Below, piece by piece: positions 33,966 to 34,651 of a DNA stretch of 64,000 nt. Both the position numbers and the translations under genes were made by a program. Source of the stretch: Escherichia phage mogra; sequence record MN850579.1; one strand, written 5' to 3'. The notes beneath the pieces were generated by a model, which searched no databases, was not told the DNA's origin, and was given only the letters and a program-made list of their open reading frames with translations. The first letter of the stretch is position 1; each line of letters starts with the position of its first letter.

Positions 33966-34196
33966 ATGTCTACTGAAACTATCGAAAAACTGCAGTCTGA
34001 AATCGTTACTCTGAAATCTCGCATTCTTGATACTCAAGACCAAGCAGCTGCTATCCAGCAAGAATCTCAGCAACTTGGTAGTGCTCTTGCTAAAATCGCT
34101 AATCTGGTTGGTATCACTGGCGAATCAGTTAAGATTGATGACCTGGTAGAAGCAGTACGTGAACTTGTTAAAGCTGAAACCACAGAAGAAGAATAA
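33966..34196 (+). CDS. 57A: gp57A tail fibre assembly chaperone
   Basis: 76 aa coiled-coil protein in T4 57A position. Confidence 0.88.
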
Positions 34197-34651
34197 TGAA
34201 ATTTGAGGACTTTTCACAAGGCCTCTACGTCGCAGCTAAGTTTTCAGAATTAACACTTGATGCGCTGGAAGACCTCCAGCGTAAATTAAGAATTCCTAAT
34301 CCAGTACCACGTGAAAAGCTTCATTCAACGATTTGTTATTCGCGTGTAAACATACCATATACTACATCTAGTGGTAGTTATTCTGTTGCCGAATCAGGAC
34401 ACTTTGAGGTATGGAAAACTGACGACGGCGCTGTACTGGTTTTAGTTCTTGATTCTGAATATCTTAGATGTCGTCATCAGTATGCACGGGCTTTAGGTGC
34501 TACTCATGATTTCGACGACTACACTCCACATATAACGTTATCATATAACGTTGGCCAACTATCATTCAGTGGTGATGTAGCTATTCCGGTTATTCTCGAC
34601 CGTGAATACAAAGAACCCTTAAAACTAGATTGGGCCGAAGATCTAAAATAA
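34196..34651 (+). CDS. 57B: gp57B / Acb1-type 2H phosphoesterase (anti-CBASS cyclic-nucleotide nuclease)
   Basis: 151 aa; two H-x-T/S motifs (HSTI, HITL) of the 2H fold; T4 57B position. Confidence 0.8.

Follow-up and report, generated by a model that had tools for sequence, protein, structure and literature searches.

The product of bacteriophage T4 gene 57B was identified as Acb1 by activity-guided fractionation, and structures of the Acb1 of phage FBB1 show a 2H phosphoesterase fold, with a metal-independent reaction that proceeds in two steps via a cyclic phosphate intermediate (Hobbs et al. 2022, PMC9117128). The same study demonstrated metal-independent cleavage of cyclic oligonucleotides (3'3'-cGAMP / cAAA, cut 3' of adenosine) for T4 Acb1 and nine further homologues, detected cleavage activity about 15 min into T4 infection, and found that T4 Δacb1 loses cGAMP cleavage and suffers a plating defect of more than 300-fold on CBASS hosts (PMC9117128). 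Transcription of acb1 has been reported as predominantly middle/late. The gene is conditionally essential, its depletion from a transposon library being confined to a CBASS host (bioRxiv 10.1101/2025.11.20.689424). The active-site tetrad of T4 Acb1 consists of two HxT motifs (H44, T46, H113, and T115), and catalysis is lost when both histidines are replaced (H44A/H113A; Hobbs et al. 2022, PMC9117128). Y12, W74, F107, and W147 are stacking aromatics, E141 makes an adenine-specific contact, and a lid formed by residues 145–152 closes over 3'3'-cGAMP, with W147 stacking on a base (PMC9117128). Removal of this lid from T4 Acb1 abolished activation of the Panoptes decoy system, from which the authors inferred that the lid is needed for catalysis (bioRxiv 10.1101/2025.08.21.671373).

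Several other systems resemble Acb1 either in structure or in strategy. One of them is 2H PDE-9 (PDB 9Q2G/9Q2Y), a distant relative from the same structural group that has both His motifs and cleaves 3'3'-cGAMP, but whose lid is N-terminal rather than C-terminal and which mostly spares 2'3'-c-di-AMP and leaves Panoptes untriggered (bioRxiv 10.1101/2025.08.21.671373). Cellular 2H phosphoesterases of the LigT / 2'-5' RNA ligase (PF13563) and AKAP7 types also have two H-x-T/S motifs and the same 2H fold according to Hobbs et al. 2022 (PMC9117128), yet the substrates of these enzymes are RNA ends or 2'-5' oligoadenylate instead of cyclic immune signals, and they are without the Acb1 C-terminal lid. 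Apyc1 (MBL fold), the AcrIII-1 ring nuclease, poxin, and the Acb2 sponge (T4 Vs.4) share with Acb1 the removal of an immune nucleotide second messenger, whereas they have no relation to it in fold or chemistry, and Acb2 works by sequestering the signal with no cleavage.

Here, we analyzed a window of 64,000 nucleotides from Escherichia phage mogra (MN850579.1), in which the gene of interest and its main sequence features are located as follows.

34196..34651, + strand: acb1 (gene 57B) coding sequence, ATG to TAA, 151 aa plus stop
34322..34339, + strand: first catalytic motif, H43-S-T45-I-C-Y (HSTICY), equivalent to T4 H44/T46
34529..34546, + strand: second catalytic motif, H112-I-T114-L-S-Y (HITLSY), equivalent to T4 H113/T115
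34625..34648, + strand: C-terminal lid LDWAEDLK, residues 144–151, with W146 (T4 W147), by sequence match to the T4 lid

An earlier note on this DNA had described a 151-aa protein at these coordinates, and the open reading frame is exact from ATG to TAA; the ORF listing of the window contains no ORF of at least 40 aa overlapping 34196–34651 on either strand. The protein matches the Pfam family PF23474 ("Anti-CBASS protein Acb1") along its full length, with residues 8–149 aligned to positions 1–144 of the 144-position profile at 197.3 bits (E=1.3e-58), far above the curated cut-off of 27 bits. The best PDB match was 7T26/7T27, structures of Acb1 from Erwinia phage FBB1 (E=1.1e-58), with 88 of 140 aligned residues identical (63%), followed by weaker matches to the divergent 2H PDE-9 deposited as Acb1, for which the sequence match was weak (E=0.007 with the single sequence, 3.8e-12 with a profile). 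Compared with T4 gp57B (NP_049750.1, from NC_000866), the protein is 85% identical in an ungapped alignment, 22 of its 151 residues being different. T4 57B has 152 aa, with one more N-terminal Met, such that T4 numbering equals window numbering plus one. Taken together, the ORF is very probably the orthologue of T4 gene 57B in Mosigvirus (the RB69 group), encoding an Acb1 phosphodiesterase whose activity is assigned by homology. The earlier reading of gp57B as an Acb1-type 2H phosphoesterase is thus borne out by the profile search against 2H/Acb1 families that it had proposed and by the identity to FBB1 Acb1, and its statement that T4 57B is Acb1 agrees with Hobbs et al. 2022 (PMC9117128).

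An AlphaFold2 model computed from the single sequence was too poor for a fold search (mean pLDDT 37, pTM 0.27), and the fold assignment hence rests on 7T26: the predicted 2H phosphoesterase fold is assigned by homology to this crystal structure. The two H-x-T/S motifs had been recognized in the earlier note at a spacing of about 80 residues; both are present, at residues 43 and 112, but only 69 residues separate H43 from H112. By itself, this motif pair proved insufficient as evidence for Acb1, since shuffles of the 57B protein that preserve composition contained two H-x-[TS] motifs in 13.6% of cases and two H-x-T motifs in 2.3%. Given how frequent the pair is in shuffles, the case for Acb1 is carried by the full-length profile and structure matches.

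All functional residues mapped in T4 Acb1 have identical equivalents in the window protein, namely Y11, H43, T45, W73, F106, H112, T114, E140, and W146 (T4 Y12, H44, T46, W74, F107, H113, T115, E141, and W147), and none of the 22 substitutions relative to T4 falls at a residue named in Hobbs et al. 2022. In the lid, LDWAEDLK replaces the LDWADDLK of T4, a single D-to-E change, the lid being scored here by its presence in sequence. The likeness to T4 Acb1 extends over length (151 vs 152 aa), tetrad, aromatics, the E141 equivalent, and the position after 57A and before internal-protein genes. For FBB1 Acb1, which defines the 2H fold and mechanism of the family, the catalytic His and Thr residues and the equivalents of Y11, E140, and W146 are identical; in the HMMER alignment this protein differs in that Phe and Tyr occupy the positions of W73 and F106 in the window and T4 proteins, with aromatic character kept, and in a one-residue indel near residue 78. 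Across an alignment of eight homologues from Tequatrovirus, Tegunavirus, Acajnonavirus, Tulanevirus, Schizotequatrovirus, Slopekvirus, and an unclassified Vibrio phage (27–85% identity), invariant positions include G9, Y11, H43, T45, S49, R93, G101, D105, Y109, P111, H112, T114, E137, E140, and L142.

Existing annotations offer a different function, as both PHROG 755 and RefSeq entries for T4 57B and several homologues bear the description "RNA ligase". The idea of a LigT / 2'-5' RNA ligase-type enzyme that joins or repairs RNA, acting on RNA ends in a process such as tRNA repair, could draw further support from the phage tRNA genes located about 1.7 kb downstream and from a weak match to the Pfam family 2_5_RNA_ligase2 / LigT (PF13563, E=0.013). 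This match, however, covers only residues 70–131 and reaches 15.9 bits against a cut-off of 27, compared to 197 bits for the Acb1 model, which places the protein outside the LigT family and leaves a relation at the superfamily level only; we therefore rejected "RNA ligase" as a family assignment. The only biochemistry found for the family is moreover cyclic-oligonucleotide cleavage (PMC9117128), and all 3'3'-cGAMP contact residues are kept. We consider an RNA-end-directed function highly improbable, and the name "RNA ligase", as used by PHROG 755 and RefSeq, appears to rest on 2H-superfamily resemblance and not on an assay.

As an Acb1 enzyme, the window protein would be a small 2H phosphodiesterase that is produced in the course of infection and works without metal, with a U-shaped pocket expected to bind the cyclic di- and trinucleotides of CBASS CD-NTases (3'3'-cGAMP, cUA, cAA, cAAA, and cAAG). 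Y11, W73, F106, and W146 would stack on the bases while E140 reads adenine N6, and the C-terminal lid would close over the ligand. Driven by the H43/T45/H112/T114 tetrad, the adenosine 2'-OH is then predicted to attack the 3'-5' bond via a 2',3'-cyclic phosphate, yielding a linear species such as GpAp. In this scheme CBASS effectors would never be activated, and abortive infection would be avoided. For the allele studied here, we infer enzymatic activity, substrate range, and anti-CBASS phenotype from homology to T4 Acb1 (85% identity) and FBB1 Acb1. There was no mention of RB69 or JS09, and no sign of a Mosigvirus or RB69-group allele among the nine extra homologues, in the main text and supplementary files of Hobbs et al. 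2022 that were searched.

With 22 of 151 residues different from T4, fine substrate preference could differ between the two proteins. We also considered that these substitutions, which lie outside of mapped contacts, may have shifted the substrate range of the Mosigvirus allele, e.g., toward poorer 2'3'-c-di-AMP cleavage and no Panoptes triggering, in the manner of 2H PDE-9, although we judge this unlikely; if true, the co-occurring Acb1 and Acb2 of RB69-like phages would be tuned differently from those of T4. A further alternative is that the enzyme is an Acb1 whose main value in vivo lies against other signaling defenses, such as type III CRISPR cA3 or other CD-NTase-like systems, at the cost of triggering Panoptes through 2'3'-c-di-AMP depletion. 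T4 Acb1 is indeed among the most promiscuous 2H PDEs tested, cleaving 2'3'-c-di-AMP at a rate comparable to 3'3'-cGAMP (bioRxiv 10.1101/2025.08.21.671373), its overexpression triggers Panoptes (bioRxiv 10.1101/2025.08.21.671373; PMC12657218), and cAAA cleavage may permit the phage to escape type III CRISPR (Hobbs et al. 2022, PMC9117128). Reported loss-of-function phenotypes are nevertheless confined to CBASS hosts (bioRxiv 10.1101/2025.11.20.689424; PMC9117128), and Panoptes defense is unchanged against T4 Δacb1 (PMC12657218). A primarily non-CBASS role, which would in any case refine the anti-CBASS explanation and not replace it with another mechanism, is very unlikely in our assessment.

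Between the window gene and T4 57B, DNA identity is 75.5%, with dS of ~1.73, dN of 0.126, and dN/dS of 0.073. This ratio indicates strong purifying selection on the window Acb1, which is no decaying remnant. A decayed or inactive remnant, kept through translational coupling to 57A, would be compatible with an acb1 start that overlaps the 57A stop and with the dispensability of Acb1 on hosts without CBASS (bioRxiv 10.1101/2025.11.20.689424; PMC9117128). Against it stand an intact, full-length frame in which all catalytic and contact residues are kept, the low dN/dS relative to T4 despite near-saturated synonymous divergence, and the identical protein found on 142 contigs. Because these residues are conserved and dN/dS is 0.073, we exclude an inactive remnant, with a probability close to nil.

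In UniRef, the identical sequence goes by the name "Anti-CBASS protein Acb1" (n=14, Tax=Mosigvirus), whereas "hypothetical protein" and "RNA ligase" are the usual labels of that sequence in GenBank records. Over the 3.1 kb around the gene, identity is 98.6% to Escherichia phages vB_EcoM_G2469 and AV109, and 96–98% to phages classed as Mosigvirus (RB69 group). Since UniRef already names the exact sequence Acb1, the earlier reading was right but not new, and the identity of the window Acb1 is already known. The value of the assignment lies in correct annotation, given that "hypothetical protein" or "RNA ligase" is still the name under which many GenBank records list this exact gene.

The neighborhood of acb1 comprises the following genes and sites.

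31673-32494: gp2 DNA end protector homologue, upstream of acb1
between the gp2 and gp1 homologues: gp3 homologue
33227-33961: gp1 dNMP kinase homologue (Pfam DNMK, E=1.9e-96)
33966..34196, + strand: gene 57A, tail fibre chaperone (Pfam GP57, E=5.9e-23; PHROG tail fiber chaperone, E=8e-26)
34666..34699, + strand: T4-early-type promoter-like site (34666-34694) TTTACA-17-TACTAT, TG-extended, with inverted repeat AGGATG/CATCCT, identified by pattern match only
34731..35042, + strand: internal head protein gene, 103 aa, starting MKTYQEFIAE (PHROG 2667, E=2e-38)
35104..35367, + strand: second internal head protein gene, 87 aa, starting MKTFNEFISE (PHROG 7673, E=4.3e-48)
36371-36445 and 36546-36622, + strand: tRNA-Met (CAT) and tRNA-Arg (TCT)

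The gene order 2-3-1-57A-57B is that of T4 and is kept across Straboviridae, and the T4 57B position given in the earlier note is confirmed; a location after gene 1/57A and before internal-protein genes is found here, and is supportive of, although not defining for, Acb1 membership. The TAA stop of 57A and the ATG of acb1 have one base in common (TAATG), and a consensus scan detected no promoter-like site between the two genes. This one-base overlap, along with the lack of a promoter-like site in between, makes it likely that acb1 is co-expressed with 57A as one transcription and translation unit. We also considered a promoter of its own for acb1, which was rejected as no site was found between 57A and the ORF. 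At the promoter-like site at 34666–34699, the acb1 unit is predicted to end and the internal-protein genes to begin.

The two PHROG internal head protein matches directly downstream also support the earlier observation that acb1 adjoins internal-protein genes. Such an adjacency is already published: T4 acb1 lies beside ipI, whose product inhibits the GmrS/GmrD restriction enzyme, and Hobbs et al. treated this arrangement as an anti-defense island (PMC9117128). The internal-protein genes downstream of the window acb1 have only the N-terminal targeting peptide in common with T4 ipI, their likeness to IPI being confined to the first 12 residues for the 34731–35042 protein and the first 14 for the 35104–35367 protein. 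The N-terminal peptide MKT(Y/F)xEF(I)xE is common to both window proteins and to T4 IPI, and elsewhere the two are only weakly alike (26% identity with long gaps, E=9e-4). This pattern is consistent with a capsid-targeting leader that is conserved while the cargo behind it can be exchanged.

Three similar intergenic cassettes were observed on the + strand at 34666–34699, 35043–35080, and 35371–35405, i.e., one ahead of each internal-protein gene and one ahead of the small ORF that comes next. Each includes a T4-early-type promoter-like site (TTTACA or TATACA, 17 nt, then TACTAT or TATAGT, TG-extended), which overlaps an inverted repeat such as GATAGGACTA...TAGTCCTATC, then ATCAAAACAA. These cassettes resemble the promoter-plus-stem-loop "PeSL" cassettes of T4-type variable regions (PMC2839356, PMC4122927), but differ from PeSL as described there in that the repeat overlaps the -10 box in the window.

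The Met-CAT and Arg-TCT genes are the two tRNA genes found between 30000 and 42000, whereas the corresponding region of T4 contains eight tRNAs, segB, and two small RNAs. The two window tRNAs are 100 nt apart, compared with 6 nt in phage 348Ecol098PP, which has an extra 516-nt ORF before tRNA-Met that is missing from the window, and Rfam returned no match in the 100-nt spacer. Across 33900–38500, an Rfam scan (E<=1) yielded two tRNAs only, plus two chance plastid-family matches overlying a tRNA, and a structured RNA in or near acb1 was accordingly rejected, with nothing in this interval beyond tRNAs and chance matches.

Further downstream, the window includes the following genes.

45298-45780, + strand: e
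46123-46533, + strand: denV
46867-47436, + strand: ipIII
47487-47744, + strand: ipII
49333-49596, + strand: Acb2 / T4 Vs.4 cyclic-oligonucleotide sponge homologue, 87 aa (Pfam PF24729 Acb2_Tad1_hairpin, E=8.1e-18)
51298-51762, + strand: T4 Tk.4 homologue, 83% identical (Pfam Macro domain, E=1.3e-6)

The Acb2 homologue is 64% identical to T4 Vs.4 (tblastn) and is located ~15 kb from acb1, so that the phage has both known T4-type anti-CBASS proteins, a degrading enzyme and a sponge. This pair is relevant to predicting host range or sensitivity to decoy-sensing systems such as Panoptes.

An Acb1 profile built from the eight Acb1/57B homologues also matched the portal protein of cyanophage Pam3 (PDB 8HDS chain A, residues 488–615, E=7.5e-12). 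The C-terminal region of this portal keeps both H-x-T/S motifs (HVTIAYS and HISLS) and a C-terminal Glu...Trp, and the Pam3 structure paper makes no mention of an Acb1-like portal domain. On the strength of these shared motifs, this region may represent a virion-borne Acb1-like domain.

Two minor observations concern the downstream genes. The Tk.4 homologue shares its early-gene block with regB and vs. Over 45298–47744 (+ strand), the window order e, denV, ipIII, ipII differs from that of T4 in the same direction, which is e, ipIII, ipII, denV.
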